Source: a virus | Taxonomy: Duplodnaviria; Caudoviricetes | Direction: 5' to 3' (one strand) | DNA length: 64,000 nucleotides | Virus record (IMG/VR): IMGVR_UViG_3300037501_000255 | Part shown: in pieces, positions 1 through 15,864 of the stretch | Layout of the letters: every line of letters starts with the position of its first letter | Numbering within the stretch: position 1 is the first letter of the stretch | Translations under genes and position numbers: made by a program | The notes under the pieces: generated by a model | Told to the model about the DNA's origin: nothing | The model's database searches: none | Seen by the model: the letters and a program-made list of their open reading frames with translations, nothing else

Positions 1-63
1 GATTCGAACCCGCGATGCCCTGAGTCACAGTCAAGTGCCTTAAGCCGCTCGGCCACGGCCACC
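1..63 (-). tRNA. tRNA-His(GUG), 3' end outside the window
   Basis: Reverse complement gives G-1 GTGGCCG, D arm GCCGAGCGGCTTAAGGC, anticodon arm CTTGA-CT GTG AC-TCAGG and T arm GCGGGTTCGAATC. Confidence 0.9.
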
Positions 64-66
64 ATA

Positions 67-804
67 TCAGATAACTACTGTTACCGCCTCGCCGCGTTCT
101 TTGAGCAGACGACCTAAATCATCAAATGATATGCAGAACCGACCACATTTTCCCCAGAATCTTCCCCAAGAATTTATGCCCCATACCAATTTCTTCTCAA
201 CATCTATTCCCAGCAATTCAAAGGCATGACCCCCTCGACGCTCCCCGGTTATCCTAACTCTGCCGGACAGGTCAGGCTTATCGAAACCGGCATACCAGTT
301 TACACCTACAGCGACGGGGCCAACATACGCAAGCGTACGCAAAACGTCCTCAATACCGAAACACCAGCGATATTCTTTAATCAACATCGCTTCCTTGGCG
401 GCCTTCATAGCCGAAAGTACGCTTGAGCCGGTATCTGTGGGAGGATATTGCCCGCTAAATTGATCAAGCTCTGTAGCGCGCGAATAAAGATCGATGGCCA
501 GGTTTTGTGAAAAATCCACATCATCACCCAACCCATCCAGATTGTTTGGGTTGGTTGCCAGCAGCCCGACGATAGCATTCCCCGTACAGGAACCTAGTTT
601 GCCCTGATTTAGGGGCGGAGTGTGGCGCTCCCACATCTTACTGCGTAGCTCAACAGGATGCCCGTCTAAAATGACACGGTAATCCTTGCTGCGCTCATCG
701 AACTTTACGTGACGACCGAGGCGTCGACTGAATACTCCTAGCCACCCTATCAGTCGCCCCCACCACGTCTGCAGCTCCGGAATTATTTCTACCACTAAGG
801 ACAT
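67..804 (-). CDS. Papain-like (C1A) cysteine peptidase
   Basis: QGKLGSCTGNA (oxyanion Gln and catalytic Cys), GGHAF (His) and INSWGRFWGKCG (Asn) motifs. Confidence 0.85.
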   Translation of the reverse strand: MSLVVEIIPELQTWWGRLIGWLGVFSRRLGRHVKFDERSKDYRVILDGHPVELRSKMWERHTPPLNQGKLGSCTGNAIVGLLATNPNNLDGLGDDVDFSQNLAIDLYSRATELDQFSGQYPPTDTGSSVLSAMKAAKEAMLIKEYRWCFGIEDVLRTLAYVGPVAVGVNWYAGFDKPDLSGRVRITGERRGGHAFELLGIDVEKKLVWGINSWGRFWGKCGRFCISFDDLGRLLKERGEAVTVVI

Positions 805-958
805 CGCTTACCTCAAAATACCGATTAACTCTGGCATTGCACCTGTCACAGTGTAACGTGCCGTCCCGGTCATCCGTAATGAATCGCCCAATATACCTGC
901 CATTCTTACATGCCGTACATTGAGCATTGGTTAAGTCTATACTGTCAGACATGATATT

Positions 959-1034
959 TGGTGGAGCTGACAGGGATCGAACCTGCGACATCAAGCTTGC
1001 AAAGCTTGCGCTCTCCCAGCTGAGCTACAGCCCC
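959..1034 (-). tRNA. tRNA-Ala(UGC)
   Basis: GGGGCTG...CAAGC-TT TGC AA-GCTTG...GTTCGATCC...CAGCTCC A CCA; G3:U70 pair present. Confidence 0.95.
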
Positions 1035-1074
1035 GTACACACTAGCATCATATCTCTGCGTCAATAGACATTGA

Positions 1075-1383
1075 CTATATTACCCTACTCTTTTTAACTA
1101 CAAGATCTTCCCCGCAATCGGGACAGTATAGAAAATCTTCTCCTTTTAGAATCTTTCTAGCAAAGCTCTTAGCAGCATTCCCGAAGAACCTCTTCGACAA
1201 CTCTTCAGGCCACGGATGCTCACCTGATTCATAATGAACCTTTCCGTCCAGATCGATAGTCCACCAACCGCCTGGTAGGAGGAAGAGGTATTCACTGCGA
1301 GCTGGAAGAAAGAAATCGGCTCCAAAAGCCAGTTCTTCTGTTACATGTCCACAGGCGCACGTGAATGTATATTTCTTCCCCAT
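1075..1383 (-). CDS. Small Zn-ribbon-like hypothetical protein
   Basis: 102-aa ORF with CxC at the N-terminus and CPDCG at the C-terminus. Confidence 0.55.
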   Translation of the reverse strand: MGKKYTFTCACGHVTEELAFGADFFLPARSEYLFLLPGGWWTIDLDGKVHYESGEHPWPEELSKRFFGNAAKSFARKILKGEDFLYCPDCGEDLVVKKSRVI

Positions 1384-1640
1384 TATCTCACCTTCCGTAC
1401 ATAATCAGCTGCATAATGCCCGGTTCTTTCGAAGGACCCTCAAGCAGTAGCGTCTTGAGTGCGCTAACCTGCGCGGCACGTTTTGGATAGTCAACCCAAC
1501 CGGAGTCCCGGTCATATTCCTCTACCCTTTGGAAGGCGCGCTCAAGTTCTTCACGCTCGTAATCCCAGCCTAAATTAGCATGATATACAAGTGTGAGTGC
1601 AGCAAATGTCTCAGGAGCATCACCAAAAAGCACAGCATTT

Positions 1641-1946
1641 TTAATTGCTCCAGCCAACTTGCCATCGCGCCAATCGCACGCAGCGTCGTTCGAAAATGGT
1701 CGCGGCTGGCTTACACCAGCAGACTAAATCTTTGCCGGCCAGCTCTTTGCGCGCCGACTCAACCAATTCAGGCTGAGCCATGAGCCATTCCTCATATTTG
1801 AGTACAGCCTCTTCTCGGGAAGAAACCTTATATTGCGCAATTGTTCCATCTTTATGAGTAAAAGGGTTGCCCCATTTTGATGGCCGACCAATATACACCG
1901 CATCTGCTGCGGCCGTCTTGTGGTATTTATTATGTACCGTTGGCAT
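1641..1946 (-). CDS. DUF4326-like protein
   Basis: VYIGRPSKWGNPF and GKDLVCWCKP motifs; start trimmed to MPTVHNK. Confidence 0.75.
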   Translation of the reverse strand: MPTVHNKYHKTAAADAVYIGRPSKWGNPFTHKDGTIAQYKVSSREEAVLKYEEWLMAQPELVESARKELAGKDLVCWCKPAATIFERRCVRLARWQVGWSN

Positions 1947-2164
1947 AGACAAATACCTTTCCGCCCCTACACCTAGCTCGCCAACCCGCATCGCGACATA
2001 TTTTTAGCTAGTCGCGCAGCATTCTCCGGATCTTCGAAACCAAGAAAGCGAAATGTTGTGCGGTCACGGTCGCCGGATGGCCGCAGTAGAACCTTGCACG
2101 TATCCGCCTGTCGCTGCAAAAACTCTTTACTCAATAGGATCGACATCAAATATCTCGTAAGAAA

Positions 2165-2237
2165 TTAGGTCAAGGGGCGCGGTCAGCATTTTTTTCAAAG
2201 TGTTGGTTTGACGATAACTGAACCACATCGGACCTAA
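2165..2237 (-). ncRNA. Y-RNA-like small RNA 1 (canonical topology)
   Basis: TAGGTCCGA-TGTGGTTCAG-TTATC ... CTGACCGCG-CCC-CTTGACCTA. The ends pair into a helix with a bulged C, and the sequence is intergenic. Confidence 0.75.
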
Positions 2238-2244
2238 ATCAATT

Positions 2245-2610
2245 TCAGAGACTATTGTATTCTCTCAGGGCTCGGCGGAAGAGTGATTCGCGGTGAGGAT
2301 TCTTAATCTCGAACCGCTTGGATTCCATCTTGCCTGGGGCCGGATTGAGCGCGAGTACCGTATAGAAAAGATCCGTGTCGGGGTTGCGCTTCAGATAGTC
2401 CTCGGCCCAATCGACGAACTTCTGTTCATCCGTGAAAGCCGCAAAAACTTGATCGATTTTATCACCCTTCATCGTATGAAGGATCGCTGCGAACTGCTCT
2501 TCCATTTGTTCTCCTATAATTGGGCTCGGTGGAGTTGCTCCCGGCCGGCCTTCGTCTGGGTCTACAAGCATAGCTGAACTATACAATCTAGAGCCTGGAT
2601 TTCTCGACAT
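2245..2610 (-). CDS. Hypothetical protein
   Basis: 121-aa ORF, co-oriented with its neighbours. Confidence 0.5.
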   Translation of the reverse strand: MSRNPGSRLYSSAMLVDPDEGRPGATPPSPIIGEQMEEQFAAILHTMKGDKIDQVFAAFTDEQKFVDWAEDYLKRNPDTDLFYTVLALNPAPGKMESKRFEIKNPHRESLFRRALREYNSL

Positions 2611-2888
2611 GTAAGAGAGCGCCCAGGCGGCTGCCTTTTCGAAGTCAGTAAAGATTTGAAATTCGCTGTCTTCTATAGTTAGAGAATTGTCAAATATACA
2701 GATTATACTATCTCAGGACTGGAGATCTAGTTCTAGGTCGAAGGTGAATACATGCGGCTCAGCCACCCAATTCTCAAGATACTGCTCTAGCCATCCAGAA
2801 TCCCCGTTGACGAATAGCCCGGCGGGCACAGTTAAACACCCACTCTCATATGCTACTAGGTATACTTGAGTCATGAAATCCTTTAATT

Positions 2889-2964
2889 TGGCTCCGGGAG
2901 CAGGGTTCGAACCTGCGACCACCTGGTTAACAGCCAGACGCTCCACCAACTGAGCTATCCCGGA
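2889..2964 (-). tRNA. tRNA-Asn(GUU)
   Basis: TCCGGGA...CTGGC-T GTT AA-CCAGG...GGTTCGAACC...CCCGGA G CCA. Confidence 0.95.
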
Positions 2965-3144
2965 CCACTAAAATCGTAAGCGTTTATGTACTCGATATCC
3001 TCTGGCGTTAGGCACTTCCGCCACAGATATTCTAAATGATCGGCGATCAAATCCTCGAGTGCCTCTGGAAACTCAGGCACCCTGCTGCGCATCAGCAGCA
3101 GAGCCTTCGTAATCGCTATATACTTTTCCCTGTAGTTTTCCATA

Positions 3145-3318
3145 AGAAGAGTTGGTCGGCATAGCGTTCACCCTACGACCATCAGGCTCAATATACCAGC
3201 AAGTATGCGTTGCCGGTGCCAGCCCTGTGATATGGGCTTTTCGCTAGCACAGAGTTATCCTAGGTTCTCTGTATTCGCTAGGCACTCACCGCCTTCCGGG
3301 GGTGGTAATGAAAACACC
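3145..3318 (-). ncRNA. Unassigned multi-hairpin structured RNA
   Basis: No ORF. A TGCC/GGCA closing stem encloses TAGC/GCTA, CAGAG/CTCTG and AGCCC/GGGCT stems, followed by CCGGCAA/TTGCTGG and GGTCG/CGACC hairpins. Confidence 0.45.
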
Positions 3319-3404
3319 GTACACTAGAAGGATTTGAACCTCCGACCTCGGGCTCCAACAGCATGACGCAATGCCTGCGCTCTCCCAGGCTGAGCTATAG
3401 GTAC
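3319..3404 (-). pseudogene. tRNA-Pro-like gene with a 19-nt anticodon loop (12-nt insertion)
   Basis: D arm TAGCTCAGCCTGGGAGAGC and T arm GGAGGTTCAAATCCTTC are intact; loop is ATTGCGTCATGCTGTTGGA; acceptor stem has a bulge; no encoded CCA. Confidence 0.6.
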
Positions 3405-3674
3405 GGGCTGCTAGCGGTAATTGAAACTACTTCATCGTAAACATCATGATGTGATCGCAGCTGGTTTATTCGGAGAACCTGTCGGGCCCCTCCCCGCTCT
3501 AGGTTTTTGTCGTGCGACATGCTGTGTTATTTCCAAGTAAAATCAGATGTTCTGCATCCTTATTTGTATATGCTTCCGTAACCGTTTCCCAGTTGCAGAA
3601 TGACTCCACCAAAAAAACATCATCCCTATCGATACGCCTAGTTAAAGATGAGAATACTGATGCTTTTTCGTGGA

Positions 3675-3753
3675 TGGTTGCGGGAGCTGGATTCGAACCA
3701 GCGATATCGAGCATATGAAACTCGCGAGGACGACCAGACTCCTCTATCCCGCA
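3675..3753 (-). tRNA. tRNA-Met(CAU), initiator-like
   Basis: TGCGGGA...CGAGT-TT CAT AT-GCTCG...TCCCGCA A CCA; fMet-like acceptor stem and D arm. Confidence 0.88.
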
Positions 3754-3760
3754 TCTCTTT

Positions 3761-3836
3761 TGGTGGTGACAGCATGAGTCGAACATGCATAGGCCGGCGT
3801 ATGAAACCAGTGCACTGCCAATTGTGCTATGTCACC
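3761..3836 (-). tRNA. tRNA-Met/Ile2(CAU)
   Basis: GGTGACA...CTGGT-TT CAT AC-GCCGG...TGTCACC A CCA. Confidence 0.88.
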
Positions 3837-4074
3837 TCATCATATGGTAATCTTCATTTTCTTCATCTTGCGACCATTGGGACATATACAATGTGCTTTA
3901 ATGCCACAATCAGCATTGCCTAAAGGGTCTTGCGTATAACCGATTGTATTCACCACCCCAGAATGGGGCAAGGCCCGCACATGGGGACTTTAATACCTGG
4001 CAGATGGGGAAACAGTAAATTCCTTCCATAAAGAGGAAGATCTCACATTACTCCTGTAATCTGACCGTGTAGAA

Positions 4075-4150
4075 TGGAGAGAGTAGAGGGGTTCAAACCC
4101 TCGGCCTCCGACTTGGAAGGATGGCGCTCTATCAGCTGAGCTATACTCTC
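4075..4150 (-). tRNA. tRNA-Gly(UCC), non-canonical
   Basis: GAGAGTA acceptor and loop CT TCC AA; anticodon stem CCATC/GTCGG has two mismatches; T loop reads TTTGAAC; CCA encoded. Confidence 0.75.
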
Positions 4151-4156
4151 ATAAGA

Positions 4157-4542
4157 TTACAGTTCGTACCTAACTTGCCCGCCGTCTGTGAATAACCCTA
4201 CTCGGGCATATACCTCGAAGGGGATAATTGACTCGTAACCCTTAGCAAGAAGTTCATTGGAATAGACAGTAGACTTTTTATCTACCGATATCGTAATGTG
4301 CGGAATTGCATGATTACTCACAACTCCCATTGGCTCTACCGCAACAGCTTGCCCGTATTCATCGTCCGTACGCGTAGCCTGATTAGCTGTCCAAGCGGCA
4401 GCCCTTCAATCTCCTCATCCTAGGGATTAAAGTTGATGGTCATGTGGTGAGCAAAAACCTTGGGGTGCTTAGGGGGAAGGGCGCTAAGTATCGCTGCTCG
4501 ACTCTCCTCCGGAAGAAATGCCCCTGCGTAAATTACCGCCAT
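4157..4542 (-). pseudogene. 2H phosphoesterase (tRNA-ligase cyclic phosphodiesterase-like), interrupted
   Basis: Absent from the ORF track. Manual translation: MAVIYAGAFLPEE...AHHMTINFNP*DEE...LRV~DDEYGQAVAV...SNHAIPHITISV...SNELL. Two HxT motifs, an in-frame TAG at 4420-4422 and one frameshift near 4370. Confidence 0.7.
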
Positions 4543-5571
4543 CTACCCACTCCATAAGAATATCGAAGCAATCTTCGCAAAGATCTAGGTCAAACACCTG
4601 TTCATCCCTGCGCGACTCGTATCCCCAATATGCAGTTAAATTGGCATGTTCGTAATTCATCTGACGCCTGCATGACTGTCCGCATCGATCACAAATAATA
4701 TCCGCTAGGGCTTCAACTACGGTCTCGACTCTGGTCATCCTCCTCATCTACGGGCTCCCGGATATCTCTAAAATGAGCAGTTAGAGCATTTAGTGCAAAA
4801 GTACGTATCTTCTGTGGCCAATTATTTTGGCTAAGTGCGATAGGTAGATTTGCCTTCCATAGTAGGAGCGCATAGGTGCGCGAGGCCGGCAAACCTGTCA
4901 TATTAAAACTACGCAAGTGTTTTAGTTGTGTGGAAAAGACTCTCTGAACTTTTCCAATCAGTTTGGGGTCTAAACTCTTTCTTAGCTCGGATTATAAGAT
5001 CTGGGCCGCCTCAGAGGCTCCAAAAAGATTCAATTCACTCATGTGCGATAGAGTTTTGTAGCCACCGGAATTACCCGTGTGGTTCTGTGAAATAGGAATA
5101 CGCTGCCTGTATGTAGATTTACTACAGTGTAACTTTCTTCGGAAGCTTGAGCGGTCAGAGGCCACAGATCAGTTTCTGAAATAGACTTCCCGAGATTTTT
5201 TACTGCAAACTCTGGCACAAAGGTACCGCAGGTCGGAAGATTTTCCAATTCAATGGCGGGCACTTCTGCTGTATCCGTTCGCAAAATCATCATACGTAGT
5301 TCCTGCGCGAGCAACAAATTCCGATAAGTAAAACCACCCCATCCGATCTGGGCTGTATCCGGGTGGCATCTGCGGTCGGTCAAGATCTATGCCATAGTAA
5401 TCGCGTCTTATATTTCCGGAATATAATCGATTATTTTCCCATAGTAGATCTATGCGGCGCTGAATCTCGGCAGAGATTACTTCAGCTATCTCGGGCACTT
5501 CTCTATTATAAACTTTAATTCTAGCCATTAGGTAGGCAAGCGTCTCTTTACTATAGCACTTCATAGTTAAT

Positions 5572-5701
5572 TGGTGGGGACGGAGGGACTCGAACCCTCA
5601 TGCTGTTTAGGCGCAGGAATCTTGGCGATTGGTGTCGGAGTCGAACCAACATATACCTTACCAATCAAATCCTGTGTGTCTACCAGTTCCACCACGTCCC
5701 C
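5572..5701 (-). tRNA. tRNA-Leu(UAG) interrupted by a 44-nt minihelix insert (5623-5666) between anticodon positions 34 and 35
   Basis: GGGGACG/CGTCCCC acceptor stem, Leu-type D arm and long variable arm. Removing 5623-5666 restores CAGGA-TT TAG AT-TCCTG. Confidence 0.85.
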
Positions 5702-5734
5702 ATACTAATTATTTACGATACATGCGGAGGGCTT

Positions 5735-6166
5735 ATGGACCTATACTTTGAAGATGTTGACTGCTATATTAGCGTAGAGCCGGAAGATTTCAGCGAAACT
5801 TTTGTTGTTGATGCCGAGATTTCCGATGCAGCCGCTGACCTACTCATTACTGCAAATGAACTTGATGAGGTGGGATTTTCCTCCTTAGCCAATACTATGG
5901 ACTCCATCCTGATGAAGTTAGCGGCAAAGTATCATGGCCGTACAGTTACACTTAACAAGCCATTTAGGACGCCGAAGGGCCCTAAGAAATTCAGCGTATA
6001 CACTAAAAATGAGAAGGGTAACGTAGTCAAGGTTAATTTCGGAGACCCAAACATGGAGATTAAACGCGATATACCGGCTCGCCGTAAATCATTTAGAGCA
6101 CGTCACAAGTGCGATAATCCCGGCCCCAAGTGGAAGGCGCGCTACTGGTCATGCAGAATGTGGTGA
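5735..6166 (+). CDS. Conserved viral protein with a basic C-terminal domain
   Basis: GGAGG RBS before ATG 5735. C-terminus KVNFGDPNM...RRKSFRARHKCDNPGPKWKARYWSCRMW resembles a domain recalled from large dsDNA viruses. N-half has an ANELD..G motif. Confidence 0.7.
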   Translation: MDLYFEDVDCYISVEPEDFSETFVVDAEISDAAADLLITANELDEVGFSSLANTMDSILMKLAAKYHGRTVTLNKPFRTPKGPKKFSVYTKNEKGNVVKVNFGDPNMEIKRDIPARRKSFRARHKCDNPGPKWKARYWSCRMW

Positions 6167-6361
6167 GCTTGTCACTTAAATTCATCGCTCAAATCGTATA
6201 CCCCCGAAAAACGAATCAGCTCACGTTTCGCGGAAATCCCCGCGCGACTCATTCGTAGTTAAAACTTTCTGAGCAGACTCTGGACGAAGCCTCGTTTCAA
6301 TATGGCGGCCTGCACTGGAGTAATCATCTCCTTCTCTGTAAATGTCACGGCCATTTTATAC

Positions 6362-7072
6362 TTACTCCTTTACGAGTATAACCTGATGCTGCTCCAGCCA
6401 TGCATCTGGTAGATGCCGAGGTCGCGCATTGTCCAAGAAGTGTTTGCGCCAAAAAGCAGTTACCCTCTCCTCCCCCAGATCAGCAACAACCTTGTCTGCC
6501 CAACAGTCCATATCCTCGCGAATTCTCGTCTGCTCTTCAATAAAACCAGCAAGAGCTGCTGTGTTATTGTGCAGATGCGAGGGTAGCTTCGCCCACATTT
6601 TTGGGAGGGCATTTGGATGAAGCATCTCAGCTCTTTCATACAAAGCCTTGGCGATGCGAAGCGACTCGACTACCCGGTTCCATTTCTGCTTATCAATCAG
6701 CGCATTTTTGAGAATGGTCTTTTCTGCCTCTGCAGTGCGCTCATAAGTATCATGGCAGGATACGCAAAGTGCCAGAACGTCGTATCCATTGTGGCGCTTG
6801 TACTTTTCCCTGAATGACCTGCGAAAACAGTACGGCACTACGTGATGGCGCTCTAGATTTTTCTCTGTGCCACACACCACGCATTTACTTGCGCGCGGCA
6901 GTAGCTCCACATCGTAACTGACGCCTCGGCCAGCATGTTCGAAATTGAGCTTGAACTCCCTATCTGAAATACGAGATGCTAAATTGCGGCCTACATACCA
7001 CTCCATGCGCTTGCGATCTACATAGGCGAGTGTCTCGCCTGTATGTGAAATCATTTTGCAGTTGTCGTACAT
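6362..7072 (-). CDS. HNH nuclease (EXD2 C-terminal-like)
   Basis: WYVGRNLA, CVVCG, RHHVVPYCFRR and HNGYDVLALCVSCH motifs. Confidence 0.75.
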   Translation of the reverse strand: MYDNCKMISHTGETLAYVDRKRMEWYVGRNLASRISDREFKLNFEHAGRGVSYDVELLPRASKCVVCGTEKNLERHHVVPYCFRRSFREKYKRHNGYDVLALCVSCHDTYERTAEAEKTILKNALIDKQKWNRVVESLRIAKALYERAEMLHPNALPKMWAKLPSHLHNNTAALAGFIEEQTRIREDMDCWADKVVADLGEERVTAFWRKHFLDNARPRHLPDAWLEQHQVILVKE

Positions 7073-7091
7073 GGCATCGTCTTTTTGAAAA

Positions 7092-7167
7092 TGGAGCCGG
7101 CAACCAGAATTGAACTGGTGACCTCCTGCTTACAAGGCAGATGCTCTACCTGCTGAGCTATACCGGC
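7092..7167 (-). tRNA. tRNA-Thr(UGU)
   Basis: GCCGGTA...TCTGC-CT TGT AA-GCAGG...TGCCGGC T CCA. Confidence 0.95.
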
Positions 7168-7400
7168 GTAAACCTTACCTCTCTATACTACAGCGCCTAA
7201 GGTCGGAGGGCTGCTCCTAAATCCTAGAGAGTGAGATCCCAAATCATTATTTTTGCCGTACGTCAGATTGGGAATTGAGTACGAGCAGAGTAGGGCCCGC
7301 ATTCATTACATAAGTAATAGAGCGGGTTCACCATCTCATGTTTCCATGTGGCAACTAATCTCTAATCGTAGCCGAAGCCTTAGATTGCATCGAGATTATG

Positions 7401-7531
7401 TGGTGGCCTGAGAGGGACTCGAACCCTCATGCCTGTGAAGGCGGTTGATTTTTGGTGGAGGATATTGGAGTTGCACCAATCACACCTACGTCCCCCGAGT
7501 CAACTGTGTCTACCAGTTCCACCATCAGGCC
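7401..7531 (-). tRNA. tRNA-Leu(CAA) interrupted by a 44-nt minihelix insert (7453-7496) between anticodon positions 34 and 35
   Basis: GGCCTGA/TCAGGCC acceptor stem, Leu-type D arm and long variable arm. Removing 7453-7496 restores GTTGA-CT CAA AA-TCAAC. Confidence 0.88.
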
Positions 7532-7991
7532 AAAAAATCAATCTTTCAACGTCACCTCTGGTTTGCAGAATCTAAGAAAATCCTCTTTCATATATTTCCT
7601 GTGCATCTTTCCCAAGTCCGTTCTGCATACTCGTCGTTTCGGATTCTTCTCAAACCATTCGCACAAACCGGCCCACATTTAATTGGCGTCGCGCTGACCT
7701 AGAAGTCCATATACGATAAACATGTTATTCACCAATTGTCGTAGTCGGTCACATTCTTTTATTTATCAAAACATCGTACGCTGACGCCCGTGCCAATTGA
7801 CGTTGGGGCAAAGAGTAGCTACCCCCCCCCCATGGCTCCAGTATAGGGCCACTTGCCGCCGCCGGTAAGATGCTCAAAATCTTCCGGACTCATTTCCGCC
7901 CGCTGTTTTTCGATCAACTCCTGCTTACACTCTTCGATGAAAGCTTTGGCGGCTTCCAATTCCTTGCCGGAGATGGTGAATGTGCGACTGT

Positions 7992-8240
7992 TCATATGCA
8001 TTTCCTTGCTACTCCCAGCATTTCGGTCCGAGCCACGTCCCCATCCTCATTCAGATAGTAGAGCCAGCCGGGTTCGAATGTTATTCCGGTTTTAACGATA
8101 TCTTCGACTTTAGTGCGGGGTCTCTTTTTCGAGACGGTCCGACACCGCTTAACTGCTCCGTCACGGGTGATCCAATAGATGTATCCTTTTTCGCGCTTGA
8201 TTCCGATTTGGAAAAGCACTTCGGTACGACCGGGAGGCAC
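7992..8240 (-). CDS. Small basic protein, possibly Cc1-like DNA-binding
   Basis: Internal duplication GIKREKGYIYWITRDG / GITFEPGWLYYLNEDGDVAR resembles recalled crenarchaeal Cc1-type proteins. Confidence 0.4.
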   Translation of the reverse strand: MPPGRTEVLFQIGIKREKGYIYWITRDGAVKRCRTVSKKRPRTKVEDIVKTGITFEPGWLYYLNEDGDVARTEMLGVARKCI

Positions 8241-8627
8241 TCACGCCGCCGCCGAAGGAGCATTCTCCACGGTGAATCCACTCACTTCCGCAACGTCTTC
8301 GACCAAAAAGCGTCGACCGAATCCATCCTGCTCCACGCGAACGCGGGCGCCCTTAGCAAAAAGCACATCAATCTTGTCATTGATGAGTACCTGGGTGCCA
8401 TCCTGCATGAATACAACGGTCACGTCTGATACGACCTGAGATGCGGAGAGTGTGCCTCCTGCATACGAGGGCATGCTGCTGTGCTTAGTGGTGTACTCAA
8501 TCTTTTCGAGGACACCACTATGAATAACCGTTCTTACTGCGCTAAGCTTAGTGGCAAAGCTCTTCGCAGCAAAGAGGCCGGCCACGGCAAGTCCGAGAAG
8601 TGCTGAAATCTTAATGACACTATTCAT
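8241..8627 (-). CDS. Hypothetical membrane-anchored protein
   Basis: 128-aa ORF with a hydrophobic N-terminal helix. Confidence 0.55.
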   Translation of the reverse strand: MNSVIKISALLGLAVAGLFAAKSFATKLSAVRTVIHSGVLEKIEYTTKHSSMPSYAGGTLSASQVVSDVTVVFMQDGTQVLINDKIDVLFAKGARVRVEQDGFGRRFLVEDVAEVSGFTVENAPSAAA

Positions 8628-8653
8628 TGCTATCCTCTTTTCTATACTAGAAA

Positions 8654-8719
8654 TCGGTCAAGTGGGTACTGTGGACTGGTTCATTTTTGAGTAAAGATAA
8701 TCCACAGAAGTCGGACCGA
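8654..8719 (-). ncRNA. Y-RNA-like small RNA 2 (canonical topology)
   Basis: TCGGTCCGA-CTTCTGTGGA-TTATC-...-TCCACAG-TACCCA-CTTGACCGA; the upper stem CTGTGGA/TCCACAG pairs perfectly. Confidence 0.8.
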
Positions 8720-8721
8720 AA

Positions 8722-8773
8722 TGGTGGGGGGTGGATTCGAACCACCGACGCGGCCAATCTCCGCCTGCTCCCA
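8722..8773 (-). ncRNA. Free-standing mini-tRNA (one internal hairpin, T arm, CCA)
   Basis: TGGGAG-CAG-GCGG AGATTGG CCGC-GTC-GGTGG TTCGAAT CCACC-CCCC-A-CCA. Confidence 0.55.
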
Positions 8774-8781
8774 TAAATAAA

Positions 8782-8860
8782 TTAGGTCTAGTTGATGGCT
8801 AGAGTGCCCTGGTGGGCGGTTCATTTTGGGTAAACGATAATCTAACCAATTCGGACCTAA
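8782..8860 (-). ncRNA. Y-RNA-like small RNA 3 (canonical topology)
   Basis: TAGGTCCGA-ATTGGTTAGA-TTATC-...-CTCTAGCCAT-CAA-CTAGACCTA; shares the loop motif TTTACxCAAAATGAACC with RNA 2. Confidence 0.78.
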
Positions 8861-8865
8861 AGTAG

Positions 8866-8940
8866 TGGTAGCCCCTGCCGGATTTGAACCGACGACCTTA
8901 TCCGTGTAAAGGATCTGCTCTACCGCTGAGCTAAGGGGCT
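8866..8940 (-). tRNA. tRNA-Val(UAC)
   Basis: AGCCCCT...GATCC-TT TAC AC-GGATA...AGGGGCT A CCA. Confidence 0.93.
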
Positions 8941-8977
8941 GCGGTGCCTTACGTATGCCTTGAACTGCTATATGCTG

Positions 8978-8987
8978 TAATTAATTA
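8978..8987. promoter_or_regulatory. Palindromic TAATTAATTA intergenic motif (1 of 7 copies)
   Basis: Exact copies start at 8978, 28294, 31276, 42395, 51346, 51628 and 55863, almost all at gene boundaries. Confidence 0.5.
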
Positions 8988-8993
8988 CTTATT

Positions 8994-9063
8994 TGGCAGG
9001 GGGGCTCGAACCCCCATCAACTATTTTGGAGACAGCCATTTTAGCTATTAAACTACACCACTA
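8994..9063 (-). tRNA. tRNA-Trp(CCA), 3' acceptor strand shortened
   Basis: GCTGT-CT CCA AA-ATAGT anticodon arm. The T arm is followed directly by TGCCA; the missing bases lie beside a C/G run, so assembly collapse is possible. Confidence 0.65.
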
Positions 9064-9078
9064 TCTTGAAGAATGATT

Positions 9079-9205
9079 TAGTGGGCCCGGTGGGACTCGA
9101 ACCCACACCGCTTTTATTCCAAAAAATGATAACGATTCTCTGTCGTACCCAAAGGGTCAGGTGGTGAGAACCACTAGTTTTGTGCTACCGTTACAACACG
9201 GGCCC
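9079..9205 (-). ncRNA. tRNA scaffold carrying a permuted Y-RNA-like helix instead of an anticodon arm
   Basis: GGGCCCG/CGGGCCC acceptor stem, D arm and T arm GTGGGTTCGAGTCCCAC; centre GGTTCTC-ACCA-CCTGACCC-TTT-GGGTACGA-CA-GAGAATCG-TTATC; 3' end ACTA. Confidence 0.65.
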
Positions 9206-9233
9206 GTGTATCAATATTAAACCATACTTCTTG

Positions 9234-9917
9234 ATGTCTAAAGTCAAGCTCCTCAGCCTAATTCTCGGCTGCCTCTTTCTCCTATTTGCTGGATGTAGAT
9301 CCAACCTAACTCACGAAGAGTTGCTTGCCTCGCGCATTGCCGAAGCAAGGCCGGCGATTGTTCATCTACTTGCGGAAGGTAGTAGTTGCTCCGCGTTTCA
9401 TGTTGGACACGAGCTTTTTATTACCGCAAGTCACTGTATCCGTCCCGATACGGAGTACATTATCGTAGATTCTGAGGATAATCCGTATGGGGTTCGCCCG
9501 ATACTTATTGATAGGGACCGGGATGTGACAGTGTTTGAGAGTAACGGATTTGAGGGCCAGCCCATGCAATTGTGGAATGAGCAGCTATACGGCTCTCCAA
9601 AGATAGGCTCTACGATAGTCAGTATGGGATTTCCAGGATATTATCTGCAAAACTTTGTTTTCGAAGAGGGTACCGTTCTAGACAAGAGAACTGATAATGG
9701 GGTGCGCCTTATCGTTAGTCGCGGAGTAAGTTATCCCGGAGAATCTGGTGGCCCAGTCATTTCATTGCAGAATGGTCAGGTGGTGGGGTTAGTACATGCA
9801 TTAGCGGAGCGTATTACCCACATAAATGACGATGTTCAAGTTCACAACACTTTAAGTCTGTTAGTTGCTTGGTCTGAAATAAGGACAGTCTTAGAGCAAG
9901 CTCGTAAGGTTAGATAA
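9234..9917 (+). CDS. Trypsin-like (S1) serine protease, predicted lipoprotein
   Basis: LLFAGC lipobox, TASHC, DRDVT and GESGGP motifs; start trimmed to ATG 9234. Confidence 0.85.
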   Translation: MSKVKLLSLILGCLFLLFAGCRSNLTHEELLASRIAEARPAIVHLLAEGSSCSAFHVGHELFITASHCIRPDTEYIIVDSEDNPYGVRPILIDRDRDVTVFESNGFEGQPMQLWNEQLYGSPKIGSTIVSMGFPGYYLQNFVFEEGTVLDKRTDNGVRLIVSRGVSYPGESGGPVISLQNGQVVGLVHALAERITHINDDVQVHNTLSLLVAWSEIRTVLEQARKVR

Positions 9918-9932
9918 CTTTAGGAGTTAACA

Positions 9933-10601
9933 ATGCTAATACGTAATATTCTAGCAGCTTTCATGCTGCTTGTAGTCAGCTCTTGCGCTATTTTCCGGCC
10001 GGCGCCAGTACAGGCTACGGTACAAGAATCGCGGGGTGCGGTGACGCACATCCTCTATGGGCAGCGTTCCTGCACAGCATTTCATATTGGGGATGGAAGA
10101 TTCATAACTGCCGCACATTGTTTCGGAGAGGATCTTGGAGGACCCATGGATGAGGTCCGCATGGTCAATGAACGCAATTTTCAATACTTCCCGAAAGTAG
10201 CGAAATTTAATAAGGCAAAAGATCTGGTGCTTTTGCTGGCCCCTGACTTTAAAGGGCCAGCGCTGTCCTTGTGGGATGGTGGATGGGACGGTCACATTCC
10301 GCGCGGAATGGAGCTCGTGGCTCTAGGATATCCTGGGTACTATGGTCTAGATTTCATCTTCGAGCATGGATTTATCAAAGATATAGTTAACTTTGAAGGG
10401 GTCGAGATGGTTGTCTCTGAGGAGGCGTCTTACTCCGGCGAGTCTGGTGGCCCCGTACTTTCTACTGCAAATGGAAAGGTTATCGGTATGGTAGATGCTG
10501 GTATAGAGCTTATTAATTGGCGTCGCTTTCCAATGCATGAGCATGTAAGCATTTCACTATTTGTGAGTGCCATGGAAATACGTGCTTTTCTAGCAAAGTA
10601 A
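9933..10601 (+). CDS. Trypsin-like (S1) serine protease paralogue, predicted lipoprotein
   Basis: VVSSC lipobox, TAAHC, KDLVLL and GESGGP motifs; tandem paralogue of the upstream gene. Confidence 0.85.
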   Translation: MLIRNILAAFMLLVVSSCAIFRPAPVQATVQESRGAVTHILYGQRSCTAFHIGDGRFITAAHCFGEDLGGPMDEVRMVNERNFQYFPKVAKFNKAKDLVLLLAPDFKGPALSLWDGGWDGHIPRGMELVALGYPGYYGLDFIFEHGFIKDIVNFEGVEMVVSEEASYSGESGGPVLSTANGKVIGMVDAGIELINWRRFPMHEHVSISLFVSAMEIRAFLAK

Positions 10602-10623
10602 ACTGCATCATCTACGCGGACGT

Positions 10624-10650
10624 GAGCGCCGGGATTTCTCGGCGCTTTTC
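10624..10650 (+). terminator. Intrinsic terminator after the protease pair
   Basis: GAGCGCC...GGCGCT hairpin followed by TTTT. Confidence 0.55.
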
Positions 10651-10798
10651 GTTTGCTCGGAAGCGGCACGCAGCTTTTCTTTAAGACTATCCAGTGCCCA
10701 CTTGACAGCGACAACACCATCATGACCTATATCGTAGGCTGATTGCTCTAGGCGCACTTCCTCTATCAGTTCTTCGATTTGTTTTATTTTCATATAAG

Positions 10799-10875
10799 TG
10801 GTTGGGGCGGCAGGACTCGAACCTGCAATAACTGGAATCAAAATCCAGGGTCCTAGCCAATTAGACGACGCCCCA
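10799..10875 (-). tRNA. tRNA-Gln(UUG)
   Basis: TGGGGCG...CTGGA-TT TTG AT-TCCAG...CGCCCCA A CCA. Confidence 0.95.
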
Positions 10876-10879
10876 GCGA

Positions 10880-11205
10880 AGTTTCCCCGCTATGATTGAG
10901 TCGATGCGCGGGGTGTGCATCTGCCATCCGATCAAATGGCGTTGCTTAAAATGATCGCCCGACGCTAATTTAAGAATAGGCGGTAGCGCAACCATACGCT
11001 ACTTTGCCTCCGAGTTTATAAGGCTCGGTGTCGGCAGTTATTTAGTGACCACCTGATGGCTTAATGGATCCATCACCCAAGTGGTGGTGCCTAACGGGCA
11101 CCAGTCGGTCTTTAGGCGACGGCCTTCCAGTAGCCTAAGCTTCACAGTATCTGGCAATACTTTTCTGCTGCGCACCGTCCGAGGTTTGAGATCTTAGGTG
11201 CCGTG
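10880..11205 (-). ncRNA. Unassigned ~325-nt multi-hairpin RNA
   Basis: No credible ORF and about eight consecutive hairpins, e.g. GTAGCG/CGCTAC, CCGAG/CTCGG, TGATGG/CCATCA, GGTGCC/GGCACC, GCCAT/ATGGC. Strand inferred from the flanking tRNAs. Confidence 0.5.
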
Positions 11206-11208
11206 AGA

Positions 11209-11304
11209 TGGTGGGAGGGGTTGGATTTGAACCAACTTTAACCAGATAACCTTCTTCTATCGGACAATTCAGTCTAGTAGTTGAAGACGGATTTGTCACT
11301 TCCC
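11209..11304 (-). ncRNA. Minihelix (acceptor stem, T arm, CCA) carrying a permuted Y-RNA-like helix
   Basis: GGGAAGT...CCGTCTTC-AACTA-CTAGAC-TGAATT-GTCCGA-TA-GAAGAAGG-TTATC...GTTGG TTCAAAT CCAAC-CCCTCCC-A-CCA; no D arm. Confidence 0.7.
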
Positions 11305-11307
11305 AAG

Positions 11308-11436
11308 TGGTGGAGGGGGCTGGACTCGAACCAGCGACACAGGGCATTTCATGCGATAACCGATTTCTGTCGGAACAGGAGTTCAAAAAGTTGAAATCGA
11401 ATTTGTTCCCTGCTCTACCAACTAAGCTACTCCTCC
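11308..11436 (-). ncRNA. tRNA scaffold (Phe-like) with a permuted Y-RNA-like helix in the anticodon region
   Basis: GGAGGAG/CCCCTCC-A-CCA with canonical D and T arms; centre TCGATTTC...TTTGAAC-TCCT-GTTCCGA-CA-GAAATCGG-TTATC. Confidence 0.75.
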
Positions 11437-11443
11437 AAAAAAA

Positions 11444-11728
11444 TCACTCCAGAGTCATGCAGCTAGTCGGAGGGCTATCGCAAGAAGCGGTGGCCAAATC
11501 AACTTCGCATGTCTTAATTTCCTTGACTGAAGACTTGATATCGTGATCGCATACTCGCTCCGACGCGAGTACTTCAAGACACTCCTCTACAGGCTGACCT
11601 GTGCACTCCGACGCCTTGCTACAATATGCTGCCATCATGGTACGACATGCACCTTGTTTTTCTTCTTGCGATTCCTTGCAGGCAGAAATCGAGAGGAGTA
11701 CAAATACATAAAGCAGGATCTTTTTCAT
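11444..11728 (-). CDS. Cys-rich lipoprotein
   Basis: LSISAC lipobox and eight further Cys in 94 aa. Confidence 0.7.
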   Translation of the reverse strand: MKKILLYVFVLLSISACKESQEEKQGACRTMMAAYCSKASECTGQPVEECLEVLASERVCDHDIKSSVKEIKTCEVDLATASCDSPPTSCMTLE

Positions 11729-11746
11729 TTTCTATTTCCTTTGTTA

Positions 11747-11869
11747 TGGCGGCGACATCCCGAATCGAACGGGAAACGCGCGTTTAACAGACGAGAATAA
11801 TCTTCAATCGGACCTCGGGTCGAGTGGCGAAGATCACTTTTTCGTGTGATACCATTTCACCATATCGCC
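11747..11869 (-). ncRNA. tRNA scaffold with a permuted Y-RNA-like helix
   Basis: GGCGATA/TGTCGCC-G-CCA, D arm GTGAAATGGTATCAC and a T arm; centre GATCTTC-GCCA-CTCGACC-CGA-GGTCCGA-TT-GAAGATT-ATTC. Confidence 0.75.
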
Positions 11870-11950
11870 ACATGAGGGTGCTTTTTGGTTTTCAGAAGTT
11901 TCCCCCTACGCCTCAGGCAGCTGATAGTTTTCTAACCGCCACCTCAAAAT

Positions 11951-12083
11951 ACTTCCTAGCAGGACTCGAACCCGCACAGATCATATCGATAATTCATACC
12001 ATCGGACAGAGTCAATAACCGGTATGGTCGGCTGGTCACCAGATTTCTCTGGTCGTACTTACCAATTAGTACGATATAGGAAG
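11951..12083 (-). ncRNA. tRNA scaffold with an extra hairpin and a permuted Y-RNA-like helix
   Basis: CTTCCTA/TAGGAAG acceptor stem, D-like GTACTAATTGGTAAGTAC, hairpin CCAGA-GAAA-TCTGG, then CCATACC...TTGAC-TCT-GTCCGA-TGGTATGAA-TTATC and a T arm; no encoded CCA. Confidence 0.65.
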
Positions 12084-12085
12084 GT

Positions 12086-12164
12086 TGGTCAGAGTGGTGG
12101 GATTCGAACCCACACGGTATCCAGTTCCCAAAACTGGCGGCCTACCTCGTGGCCCTCACTCTGA
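12086..12164 (-). tRNA. tRNA-Pro(UGG)
   Basis: CAGAGTG...CCAGT-TT TGG GA-ACTGG...CACTCTG A CCA. Confidence 0.9.
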
Positions 12165-12702
12165 TAAACTCGTACACTCTTTCTTCTATGAGATTCCTAT
12201 ATCTCGAATGCCAGTATTGGTGATGTGTTGGGCATAGCGGCACCAAATTATCTGGATTATTGTTGTCCCTATCCTCATCCATATGGTGGACTTCTACGAT
12301 TAGGCTCTCTTCGCAGACGGCACACTTCTTTTTATTATTAGCGAAACACACTGTCCTGTAATTCTTAGGAGATCTGACTTCCGGCCCCTTCCTAAAGAAT
12401 TTATTTGCACATGCATAGGAGCATGTAGCTTTGCTCTTAGCGGGAGACGCTGGAGTAACAAATTCTTTATTGCAAACGGGGCAATTCTTATTAAGACGTT
12501 CGCATTTATACCTTGGCTTACCGAAATGAGTCGTTGAGAACCCTGTACACATCTGCTTTGCTTTTCTTATACCAGAACCGTTATTCGGAAAACCTAATCC
12601 GGTAGCCACATCAGAAAAAGAATTTGATCTTTTAATCAGATCAACCAAGAAAACGTCCGGCATGCGCCATTTATAGGCTTGGCGCATGCTATTGGACGAC
12701 AA
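12142..12702 (-). CDS. Free-standing HNH (homing-type) endonuclease with Zn fingers
   Basis: CPVC..CSYAC, CAVC and EVHHMDEDRDNNNPDNLVPLCPTHH motifs. Confidence 0.8.
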   Translation of the reverse strand: MSSNSMRQAYKWRMPDVFLVDLIKRSNSFSDVATGLGFPNNGSGIRKAKQMCTGFSTTHFGKPRYKCERLNKNCPVCNKEFVTPASPAKSKATCSYACANKFFRKGPEVRSPKNYRTVCFANNKKKCAVCEESLIVEVHHMDEDRDNNNPDNLVPLCPTHHQYWHSRYRNLIEERVYEFIRVRATR

Positions 12703-13499
12703 TTTATTTATTCACATGTCGTACGTCTCAAGCACATCGACGATAGTAGGACGAGACGTATCAACCTCGACCGGGCCATTTACTTCGATGCGATCCCACT
12801 CATCATCATCAATGCCGTCCTCGCCAAAGTAACGAGCTACAAATTCAGGCTCATCATCGATATGCATAACAAACGTGTGGTCTGCACTCTGATACACAAC
12901 CAAGGTCATCATATCTATACCCAGCTTTCCTTTAAAAAGTTTATTGTTCTGTGTTGACGGTCAAATGCCTTTTGGCGACGAAACTCCCTTACACGTACTC
13001 TGAACAGGAGATATGCTAAAATGCCCTCAGACAAAGATAGGGTAAAGTCCGGTGCATCACTCAGGTATAGTCTGAACATATGTCCGCCATACCTGTTGGG
13101 CACATACTGCGGCGCGTACGCAATGCTTTTACGGCCTGTATCAAACTCGCGCACCAGGGAATAGGTGTCATCATGGTCAACAACCCTCCACATACTTGGC
13201 TCGCGCATGCTTCACACTAGCCGTCGAATGTATGGTGTTTCGTCGAGCTTGATTATGTTACTCATAGACATTGCTGAGCAGGATGTTTGTGGTATTTGCG
13301 CTTCAGCCGGTAGCCTGGTCACTGGGCGAGTCCTCCGGCACGGTGACGACAAGCGCCGCAAACTAACTCATAAATTCGGCCCATGATTGAAATGCGGCAT
13401 CTTTTGCTCTGCCATCCTGTTGGTATTGGACAAAGATCGCGCCATTGCCCAGCTGACGCGCGTTAATATTCGCTACGCTCATGGAACCTCCTGTAAAAT

Positions 13500-13574
13500 T
13501 GGTGACCCGTGAGGGAATCGAACCCTCGTTACAGGAATGAAAATCCTGCGTCCTTGCCGCTAGACGAACGGGCC
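13500..13574 (-). tRNA. tRNA-Glu(UUC)
   Basis: GGCCCGT...CAGGA-TT TTC AT-TCCTG...ACGGGTC A CCA. Confidence 0.95.
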
Positions 13575-13650
13575 GTACCAGCGTAACGTGCTGGAGTCGC
13601 TGCATCTGGTTGTACTGCACAGTGACCGGCTTGTCCTAGCAGGAGGATGC

Positions 13651-13726
13651 TGGTGGGTCAGGTGGGAATCGAACCCACGACTTCCGGATTAAAAGTCCGT
13701 TACTCTTCCGGCTGAGTTACTGACCC
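13651..13726 (-). tRNA. tRNA-Lys(UUU)
   Basis: GGGTCAG...CGGA-CT TTT AA-TCCG...CTGACCC A CCA. Confidence 0.95.
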
Positions 13727-13790
13727 GGCGTGGCAATTCGAACTGCCGACCTTCACGTTCGTAGCGTAACGCTCACTGAGCTAATGGGGC
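13727..13790 (-). pseudogene. Degenerate tRNA-Arg(ACG)
   Basis: TTACG-CT ACG AA-CGTGA anticodon arm and T loop present; D loop collapsed to AGT; acceptor strands do not pair. Confidence 0.55.
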
Positions 13791-15840: not shown

Positions 15841-15864
15841 AAATTCCTTTCTTGAGGTACTAGA

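Follow-up and report, generated by a model that had tools for sequence, protein, structure and literature searches.

Two interrupted tRNA-Leu genes and their uninterrupted counterparts

We analyzed a 64,000-nucleotide stretch of DNA (the window) from the tailed-phage record IMGVR_UViG_3300037501_000255. The source is a huge freshwater phage with 50% GC and a genome of more than 340 kb. Every tRNA gene in the first 14 kb of the window lies on the minus strand, and two of them, tRNA-Leu(UAG) and tRNA-Leu(CAA), are interrupted by inserts of 44 nucleotides (nt) (Table 1). Both genes are of type II, with a long variable arm, and encode A73 and CCA in their 3' exons. In tRNA-Leu(UAG), the anticodon stem CAGGA/TCCTG encloses TTT, the 44 nt, and AGAT, and the insert lies between U34 and A35. 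In tRNA-Leu(CAA), the stem GTTGA/TCAAC encloses CTC, the 44 nt, and AAAA, and the insert lies between C34 and A35. An earlier reading of the sequence by a model, here called the original prediction, had placed both splits between anticodon positions 34 and 35. We found that this holds to the base, and that the insert sequences and their segmentation match exactly on the minus-strand reading.

The Rfam tRNA model covers 5575-5701 (45.3 bits) and 7404-7531 (42.0 bits) end to end, tolerating the large insertion. Default ARAGORN misses both genes. Its intron mode finds a 44-nt insert in each but places it 2 to 4 nt off, so that the anticodons are miscalled as Pro. Running a tRNA caller on the genes without their inserts had been proposed along with the prediction; when we deleted the inserts in silico, ARAGORN without intron mode returned canonical Leu(TAG) and Leu(CAA) cloverleaves of 86 and 87 nt. 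The exons of both genes keep perfect stems, U33, A37, and A73. Scans for tRNA genes found no further tRNA-Leu gene in the window, and CUA and UUG make up 29% of the Leu codons in 25 window open reading frames (ORFs). The flawless exons, the kept anticodons, the lack of another tRNA-Leu gene in the window, and this codon share indirectly support the idea that the pair is used.

We found the same sequence in independent data. A 95-kb Logan contig of the source run, assembled independently, matches window positions 5000-12500 with 0 differences and includes both inserts, and a second freshwater metagenome from a different study holds an identical 151-nt piece (5582-5732) that spans intron 1. The concern that the inserts would turn out to be assembly chimeras thus did not hold. 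Megablast and blastn searches with the region and the interrupted genes gave no match among 50,697 GenBank phage records, and a search of IMG/VR for the exact exon pattern with a 55- to 85-nt gap found nothing.

A related phage came from a homologue (52% identity) of the HNH-like ORF that lies in the window's tRNA cluster. The homologue is on a 115-kb metagenomic contig, L233, that shares with the window the order RlaP, M50 peptidase, tRNA-Lys, tRNA-Glu, two trypsin-like genes, and then Leu(CAA), Thr, HNH, and Leu(TAG). Both tRNA-Leu genes of L233 are uninterrupted (Leu(TAG), L233:10813-10895; Leu(CAA), L233:9673-9758). Alignment of the Leu(UAG) genes of the window and L233 gave one clean 44-column gap between ..GATTT and AGA... 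The Leu(CAA) anticodon loop reads CTCAAAA in L233 and CTC, 44 nt, AAAA in the window; this comparison was made by direct reading, as the MAFFT alignment was misaligned. The Leu exons are about 73% identical between the two phages (about 27% divergence), with the same anticodons kept. At both insertion sites, the base preceding the insert differs from the last base of the insert and the base following it differs from the first, so the intron borders cannot slide. No alternative border yields the same spliced product, and the intronless orthologues in L233 fix the borders independently.

We also found the reverse arrangement. In L233, tRNA-Thr(UGU) (9959-10079) carries a 45-nt insert at 34/35 that consists of CTCAGAT, a 10-nt linker, GTCGG-TTCGATT-CCGAC, ATCTGGG, G, and CAA, and tRNA-Ala(UGC) (14731-14853) carries a 48-nt insert with the tail A-CCA. 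The window has both of these genes in uninterrupted form. These reciprocal alleles indicate that, between related phages, individual genes have precisely gained or lost the elements. We concluded that the inserts are genuine intervening sequences in otherwise intact, conserved tRNA genes. The homologues of the HNH-like ORF, at 52 to 59% identity, adjoin tRNA clusters, and its product could possibly be a DNA-level mobility factor for the introns. A search for relatives through the M50 peptidase gene returned one distant IMG/VR locus and a few short metagenome contigs, none of which has the Leu genes.

A phage family of tRNA-shaped introns

From 5' to 3', both window introns consist of a 7-nt strand and a linker of 9 nt, then a 5-bp stem capped by a T-like loop of 7 nt, and finally the complement of the 7-nt strand, a purine, and CCA. 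Together these make a minihelix with a 12-bp coaxial stack (7 plus 5), a 7-nt T-type loop, G53-C61, C56/R57, a purine discriminator, and CCA. In intron 2, the innermost acceptor-like pair (the equivalent of 7:66) is a C.A mismatch, which leaves 6 bp plus the mismatch, and the loop TGCAACT has G, not U, at the equivalent of position 55. The geometry had been predicted to be identical in the two inserts; the layout is indeed shared, but the mismatch in intron 2 departs from it, and the AGGT pointed out in the linkers is not a conserved feature of the relatives described below. Intron 2 also has G3.U70, A73, and CCA, the determinants of minihelix recognition by alanyl-tRNA synthetase (AlaRS). This may be a coincidence, and most family members lack G3.U70.

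For intron 1, the minimum free energy fold is the proposed minihelix. For intron 2, it is an alternative fold, and the minihelix rests on comparative support. The folding-energy z-scores of the inserts are -1.6 and -0.4, which is not significant, as is usual for tRNAs; we credit the structural support to covariation and not to folding energy. Among random 44-mers of window composition, both helices occur in register at a frequency of about 1e-4, which falls to about 1.5e-6 when the terminal CCA is included.

In an alignment that adds the L233 Thr intron to the pair from the window, 35 of 36 cells are paired, and 7 of the 12 pairs differ on both sides. Neither any of 500 shuffles nor any slid register approached the pairing score of the three introns. 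Searched over all 64 kb of the window, a covariance model built from the same three (R1) recovered only introns 1 and 2, which score 54 and 48.6 bits, respectively. The next match (23.8 bits) came from a tRNA-like chimera, namely its T-arm/acceptor end (11209-11255), and later ones were mostly the T-arm/acceptor/CCA ends of genuine tRNAs. That the runners-up are tRNA ends shows the tRNA-likeness of the introns.

We then aligned 14 distinct elements, two from the window and the rest from eight other phage contigs, in a register counted from the 3' end. Members beyond those of the window and L233 were found by a pattern scan of IMG/VR (type II tRNAs with 60 to 90 nt from D arm to T loop) followed by ARAGORN and a descriptor search. 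Besides the two in L233, they include four in L214, a complete 155-kb IMG/VR contig with interrupted tRNA-Leu(UAA), tRNA-Gln(UUG), tRNA-Ile(UAU), and tRNA-Lys(UUU), and one each in L175/L190, L137/L167/L170/L176/L200, L269, L292, and L305. The last is a 50-nt intron with the tail A-CAA in tRNA-Ala(UGC) of L236 (L236:3802-3928); the L233 and L236 Ala introns have the loop GTCATA(C/T) in common, and their stems covary fully.

A single register fits all 14 elements: a 5-bp stem, a 7-nt loop, the other 5 nt of the stem, a 7-nt strand, one nucleotide, and C(C/A)A; the partner of the 7-nt strand forms the extreme 5' end. The acceptor-like stem pairs in 94 of 98 cells, the mismatches all falling at the innermost pair, and each of its positions shows 3 to 6 pair types. 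The T-like stem pairs in 70 of 70 cells, and its last pair is G-C without exception, like the G53-C61 of tRNA. In the loop, position 3 is invariably C and position 4 invariably a purine, matching C56 and R57. The discriminator is A or G in 14/14, and the tail is CCA in 12/14 and CAA in 2/14 (L233 Thr and L236 Ala). Linkers range from 9 to 49 nt. The nucleotide preceding the cut is U in 12 of the 14, and the first nucleotide of the intron is G in 9.

The insertion site varies (34/35 in 11 elements, 35/36 in 2, and 32/33 in 1). In all 14, the intron opens with the first base of the acceptor-like stem and ends with the last base of the tail, regardless of host tRNA or site in the loop; the window inserts had been predicted to begin at the would-be mature 5' end and to stop at the CCA, and the rule extends to the whole family. 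Since the borders track the intron ends as the insertion site shifts, the cuts appear to be defined by the intron and not by the host tRNA. A covariance model of the insert and a search for relatives had been suggested as a check, and the structure does recur with covariation. The idea that homologues would conserve both structure and length was borne out for structure; length varies with the linker. We concluded that the inserts are members of a recurrent, gain/loss-polymorphic phage family with borders set by their own tRNA-like ends.

Some members resemble one another more closely. The introns of L214, L175, L137, L269, L292, and L305 have a 5-bp stem of invariant shape, a GGCAG(C/T/G)A loop where the T loop would be, and a CA(A)GTG linker motif, and this subfamily occurs in tRNA-Leu(UAA), tRNA-Gln(UUG), tRNA-Ile(UAU), and tRNA-Lys(UUU). 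A scan for GGGGCAGYACC..ACCA returned mostly chance matches, with 3 true elements out of 120, and a D-arm pattern scan returned mostly uninterrupted tRNA-Leu genes. Blastn searches of isolate phages with the interrupted genes of L214 and L175 gave exon-sized matches only, and the search turned up no tractable model phage.

Table 1. Positions in the window of the interrupted tRNA genes, their introns, and the related genes discussed in the text.
Feature	Position	Strand	Description
Interrupted tRNA-Leu(UAG)	5572-5701	minus	5' exon 5667-5701 (35 nt), intron 5623-5666 (44 nt), 3' exon 5572-5622 (51 nt)
Intron 1 minihelix	5623-5666	minus	GATTGGT / AAGGTATAT / GTTGG-TTCGACT-CCGAC / ACCAATC / G / CCA
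Interrupted tRNA-Leu(CAA)	7401-7531	minus	5' exon 7497-7531 (35 nt), intron 7453-7496 (44 nt), 3' exon 7401-7452 (52 nt)
Intron 2 minihelix	7453-7496	minus	GGGGGAC / GTAGGTGTG / ATTGG-TGCAACT-CCAAT / ATCCTCC / A / CCA
Uninterrupted tRNA-Ala(UGC)	959-1034	minus	Intact; L233 counterpart interrupted
HNH-endonuclease-like ORF	6362-7072	minus	Between tRNA-Thr and tRNA-Leu(UAG); weak PHROG HNH matches; syntenic in L233
Uninterrupted tRNA-Thr(UGU)	7092-7167	minus	Empty-site allele of the gene interrupted in L233
tRNA-like Y-type chimeras	9081-9205, 11308-11436, 11747-11869; also 11209-11304, ~11951-12083	minus	Acceptor stem, D arm, T arm, often CCA
Fragmentary RNA-ligase-like ORF	19150-19401		Adjoins RlaP; PF09414 fragment, 23 bits, below cut-off
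RlaP (RNA-repair-pathway pol-beta nucleotidyltransferase)	20019-21167	minus	PF10127, 3e-20
Macro	24890-25381	minus	Pfam
2H/LigT-like phosphoesterase	25378-25827	minus	Pfam
Metallophosphoesterase	26048-26623	minus	Pfam
HAD domain of 'Swiss Army Knife' RNA repair proteins	26601-27158	minus	Pfam
ATP-dependent RNA ligase, Rnl5 (NgrRnl/DraRnl) type	62467-63540	minus	PF09414 (5e-25) and PF21189

Known tRNA introns and other tRNA-like RNAs

The arrangement had been put forward as undescribed, which proved only partly right. Devoto et al. reported in 2019 that Lak megaphage tRNAs contain 'enigmatic', highly conserved introns that are polymorphic in presence or absence, one of which 'itself may encode a tRNA' (PMC6784885). 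These introns are longer, lack CCA, and were left unexplained. A literature search for a described mechanism of tRNA-like phage tRNA introns led us to the Lak report only, itself without a mechanism.

Like the window introns, the Lak introns are short, do not self-splice, and interrupt the anticodon loops of tRNA genes in huge phages; they have no Rfam match and vary in presence and absence, as we saw between the window and L233. From the sequences in Table S6 of that report, their 3' part is a tRNA-like unit with a 7- to 8-bp acceptor-like stem and a TTCGAAT-type T arm, and they too end within a few nucleotides of the acceptor-like 3' strand. They differ in being 79 to 114 nt long, with a 26- to 30-nt 5' leader hairpin, more of a middle resembling a D arm or anticodon arm, and a CA or CTA tail; the window introns are bare 44-nt minihelices with an N-CCA tail and have the 5' splice site at their first base, and their host is an unrelated freshwater phage. 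Judged by sequence, the window introns appear to be a new, minimal version, with a CCA end, of the Lak-type phage tRNA introns, which are themselves poorly understood. A tRNA-Leu-like gene at L166:3435-3592 has a leader hairpin followed by the minihelix ACTGCAT ... ATTGG-TTCGATT-CCAAT-ATGCAGT-T-CAA; it is Lak-like and looks intermediate.

Other inserts in phage tRNA-Leu genes look different. In L022/L216, L182, L123/L146, L157/L215, and L178, the anticodon loop holds inserts of 26 to 41 nt that form non-minihelix hairpins and lack CCA; these may be further kinds of intron. Many IMG/VR loci, among them L124, L133, L203, L224, L132, L164, L127, L131, and L154, make up large families of phage RNAs in which the acceptor, D, and T arms of tRNA-Leu are kept and 40 to 70 nt of unrelated structure replaces the anticodon and variable arms.

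We compared the window introns with the established classes. Group I introns also occur in the anticodon loops of bacterial-type tRNA-Leu, at the U34/A35 site in cyanobacterial tRNA-Leu(UAA) (PMC3984707), and are likewise mobile or polymorphic. They are, however, self-splicing ribozymes of at least 200 nt with a P1-P9 core and a guanosine cofactor and are detectable with Rfam, whereas the window inserts are 44 nt without a conserved core. We rejected a group I intron on this length and on an Rfam scan of positions 1-16000, which gave only tRNA over both loci, and a group II intron, a six-domain ribozyme of more than 400 nt that typically has a reverse-transcriptase ORF, on length and the lack of an Rfam match. 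Small self-cleaving ribozymes were rejected because the inserts share no sequence and two cuts are needed.

The introns of archaea and eukaryotes, removed by EndA/TSEN and rejoined by RtcB or Trl1, are also short, sit in the anticodon loop, and leave exons that the tRNA body holds together; removal by proteins and rejoining by a ligase are only proposed for the window introns. Their recognition depends on a bulge-helix-bulge (BHB) motif or on measuring from the mature domain, the site is usually 37/38, and the ends are 2',3'-cyclic phosphate and 5'-OH. In the BHB motif, the splice sites lie in two bulges of 3 nt, and between these the 5' exon and the 3' part of the intron form a 4-bp helix. 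The window site is 34/35, and the ends of the intron mark the cuts. We rejected a BHB intron, since the exon sequences AUUU and ACUC cannot pair with the intron sequences GCCA and ACCA and the splice sites flank a 7-bp stem formed within the intron. No Pfam match to an EndA-family splicing endonuclease was found among the 49 window ORFs scanned.

Other comparable systems are the MALAT1 mascRNA, mitochondrial tRNA punctuation, and engineered tRNA-guide RNA arrays, in which RNase P and RNase Z cut an embedded tRNA-like module and leave flanks with 3'-OH and 5'-phosphate (5'-P) ends. For the window introns, such cutting is only proposed, the flanks are tRNA halves that need ligation and not separate products, and the module encodes CCA. 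The T4 Pnkp/Rnl1 system and Rnl5 ligases offer a parallel for phage-encoded sealing of an anticodon-loop break, and the window ligase is a full-length NgrRnl homologue. T4 mends damage done by a host nuclease (PrrC, at 33/34) and not a programmed intron.

We found further tRNA-like RNAs in the same island. In the anticodon arm of the Y-type chimeras (Table 1), the UUGACC-type and GGUCCGA-type strands of a hairpin occur in reversed order, with a UUAUC-like motif after them, and in sequence this hairpin appears to match a circularly permuted Ro60-binding Y-RNA helix. These modules are inserted in the anticodon stem, unlike the window introns, which sit in a split anticodon loop. A Y RNA or YrlA module was rejected as an identity for the introns, as the Ro60-binding motif, in which GGUCCGA pairs with a UUGACC-type strand and a C is bulged, is absent from 5623-5666 and 7453-7496. 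Just downstream of tRNA-Val (~8650-8860, minus strand), two free-standing Y-RNA-like hairpins (GGUCCGA ... UCAAC/UUGACC) flank a mini-tRNA-like element of about 52 nt (~8722-8773) that has one hairpin, a GGTGG-TTCGAAT-CCACC T arm, and ACCA.

Three other minus-strand loci were recorded. The tRNA-Arg(ACG)-like remnant at 13728-13790 is degenerate: its D arm is truncated, and it lacks a proper 3' acceptor strand. In the relative L243, the tRNA-Arg(ACG) gene is intact (725-802). The ORF at 13865-15010 fuses an N-terminal domain resembling archaeo-eukaryotic primase (AEP 1D-like) to an M50 site-2-protease, of which the L233 orthologue has the M50 part only. At 34558-34922 is a phage transfer-messenger RNA with the tag peptide ANDNVEFAPVALAA, adjoining an ATP-dependent DNA-ligase-like gene (34969-36069).

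Possible routes of intron removal

Bacterial RNase P accepts minihelices, uses the RCCA tail, and prefers U(-1) and G(+1). An acceptor/T stack with a T-type loop and a purine-CCA is a minimal bacterial RNase P substrate, and tRNA 3'-end enzymes read the same shape. RNase P leaves a 3'-OH upstream, RNase Z leaves a 5'-P downstream, and ATP-dependent RNA ligases join such ends without end healing. We propose that, once the tRNA cluster is transcribed, RNase P would recognize the acceptor/T-arm minihelix with its RCCA tail and cut at the first base of the intron, leaving a 3'-OH on U34 or C34. An RNase Z/BN-type 3' endonuclease, measuring to the CCA end, would cut after the terminal A and leave a 5'-P on A35. 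The tRNA body would keep the exons together after both cuts. The anticodon loop would then have a single 3'-OH/5'-P nick for an ATP-dependent RNA ligase to close.

The phage encodes at least one such ligase, and the candidate sealer of these ends is the product of the gene at 62467-63540. It has an N-terminal OB fold and a nucleotidyltransferase domain, and it matches Naegleria gruberi RNA ligase (5COT) over nearly its full length (E=1e-43); together with the Pfam matches, this supported the Rnl5 side of the predicted Rnl2/Rnl5-type phage ligase in the window. In G001 and G004, the near-complete records of L214 and L305, a PF09414 ligase gene directly adjoins a weak RlaP-like gene, a pair that parallels the ligase fragment and RlaP at 19150-21167 in the window.

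Borders at the first acceptor-like base and at the CCA end are the pattern expected if the intron's own tRNA shape directs its excision. We infer every step of the RNase P, CCA-end endonuclease, and ligase route, and we consider it the best-supported mechanism, about evenly poised between right and wrong. The fuller proposal, that the introns are a mobile family that hops among phage anticodon loops, is excised by tRNA end-maturation enzymes, and is sealed by a phage ligase, we regard as plausible but not quite probable. The roles that had been suggested for the splicing, to gate Leu decoding or to hide the anticodon from anticodon nucleases, are conjectural.

Several points weigh against this route, the first of which concern the 3' cut. 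There are precedents for it: the tRNase Z of T. maritima cleaves precursors that contain CCA, precisely after A76 (PMC1540738), and Methanomicrobial RNase Z enzymes cut CCA precursors after A76, provided that the 5' end is matured, and accept pre-tRNAs without a D, T, or anticodon arm (PMC7479834). For the typical RNase Z of bacteria, however, CCA is a strong inhibitor, acting about 1,500-fold on the B. subtilis enzyme under Mg2+ (PMC7479834). Two family members end in CAA and not in CCA. In hosts of the E. coli type, exonucleases produce most 3' ends and would destroy the 3' exon. Because of the CCA inhibition and this exonuclease-type maturation, a suitable host 3' endonuclease is an assumption and the 3' cut is the weakest step. 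At the 5' side, the Lak-type and L166-type introns have a leader before the tRNA-like unit, which RNase P alone could not remove precisely.

The remaining points concern sealing and expression. Duplex nicks, not loops of the anticodon arm, are the substrates on which Rnl5 enzymes have been characterized. The 2H, Macro, metallophosphoesterase, and HAD genes, which form an RNA end-healing run at 24890-27158, fit 2',3'-cyclic phosphate and 5'-OH ends, and RNase P and RNase Z do not make these. Of 4 intron-bearing records, 3 had a PF09414 ligase above the cut-off, as did 6 of 10 control phage contigs, and RlaP (weak matches) was found in 3 of 5 of each kind; co-occurrence of either gene is no higher than in controls and does not discriminate the intron-bearing contigs. 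The runs that hold the window sequence are DNA runs only.

The healing genes point to an alternative in which a dedicated minihelix-recognizing endonuclease, either encoded by the phage or a host enzyme resembling an anticodon nuclease, leaves cyclic phosphate and 5'-OH ends and phage enzymes heal and seal them. T4 Pnkp/Rnl1 repair and fungal Trl1 splicing are examples of healing and sealing. We consider this alternative unlikely. In its favor, the contiguous toolkit, RlaP, and the ligase genes, which include healing enzymes unneeded for RNase P/Z ends, would all be put to use, the CCA inhibition of RNase Z would be sidestepped, and 32/33, 34/35, and 35/36 are positions that known anticodon nucleases cut. 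However, we recognized no candidate endonuclease among about 58 window ORFs with Pfam or PHROGs, and the strict register with G53-C61, C56/R57, and purine-CCA is what tRNA end-processing enzymes read; to our knowledge, no other nuclease reads it. The RNA repair gene set is explained equally well as counter-defence against host anticodon nucleases.

It is less likely again that the inserts are never removed and that the 130-nt RNAs are permanent tRNA-like chimeras, serving as a scaffold or as a decoy that baits anticodon nucleases or tRNA-binding proteins. What lends this reading weight is the abundance of non-decoding tRNA-like chimeras in the island: at least three of its tRNA-like genes have a Y-RNA-like module in the anticodon arm, and many viral contigs have tRNA-Leu-like genes with large fillings that are not introns. 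The loop pieces TTT plus AGAT and CTC plus AAAA nevertheless still spell the loop and anticodon of the orthologues, as a perfect 7-nt loop, and the window has no other tRNA-Leu gene. A scaffold also has no need of a 3' CCA exactly at the border. The introns, moreover, are polymorphic in presence and absence, whereas the Y-type chimera at 11747-11869 is kept in L233 (5687-5809) with a mean column identity of 93%, against 73 to 74% for the tRNA-Leu genes. We take this chimera, which is kept and is more conserved than the tRNA-Leu genes, to be a stable RNA and not an intron.

Another improbable reading makes the excised CCA-ended minihelix the functional product, such as a mini-tRNA that can be aminoacylated or bound by the CCA enzyme, a decoy for acceptor-end toxins, or a primer. 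The tRNA would be its carrier, and exon rejoining may or may not follow. The encoded CCA in 12/14, the purine discriminator in 14/14, the AlaRS determinants of intron 2, and the free-standing mini-tRNA-like element with ACCA between Y-like RNAs would fit such a product. The acceptor sequences are unrelated, though, and most lack G3.U70, which argues against a common identity; related phages also freely lose the element, and a stand-alone gene would be simpler. An artefact or decay, in which the inserts are assembly chimeras or recent selfish insertions that make pseudogenes, has in its favor a general possibility and the insignificant z-scores and is very improbable and largely refuted, as the same sequence recurs in the independent assembly and the second study's run, two unrelated sequences share one architecture at a chance of about 1.5e-6 each, the exons are intact, and the family recurs with covariation in other phages.

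We return to the proposal that RNase P, a 3' endonuclease, and a ligase remove the introns. In textbooks, the tRNA introns of bacteria are ribozymes that splice themselves, and tRNA splicing by proteins is regarded as a trait of archaea and eukaryotes. If the proposal is true, it would be a third splicing logic, in which introns of 44 to 76 nt carry tRNA processing signals and general maturation enzymes plus a repair ligase do the splicing; should the mechanism hold, this would be a categorically new tRNA splicing route. It would provide a physiological substrate for the RNA ligases and repair genes of large phages, whose tRNA maturation may depend on the phage's own ligase, and it would explain the 'enigmatic' Lak megaphage introns. 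It would also offer a compact, portable excision module for RNA engineering. Phage tRNA annotation would be affected as well, since default bacterial tRNA finders miss the interrupted genes or misname their anticodons. The reciprocal intron-plus and intron-minus alleles of two related phages are natural experimental controls.

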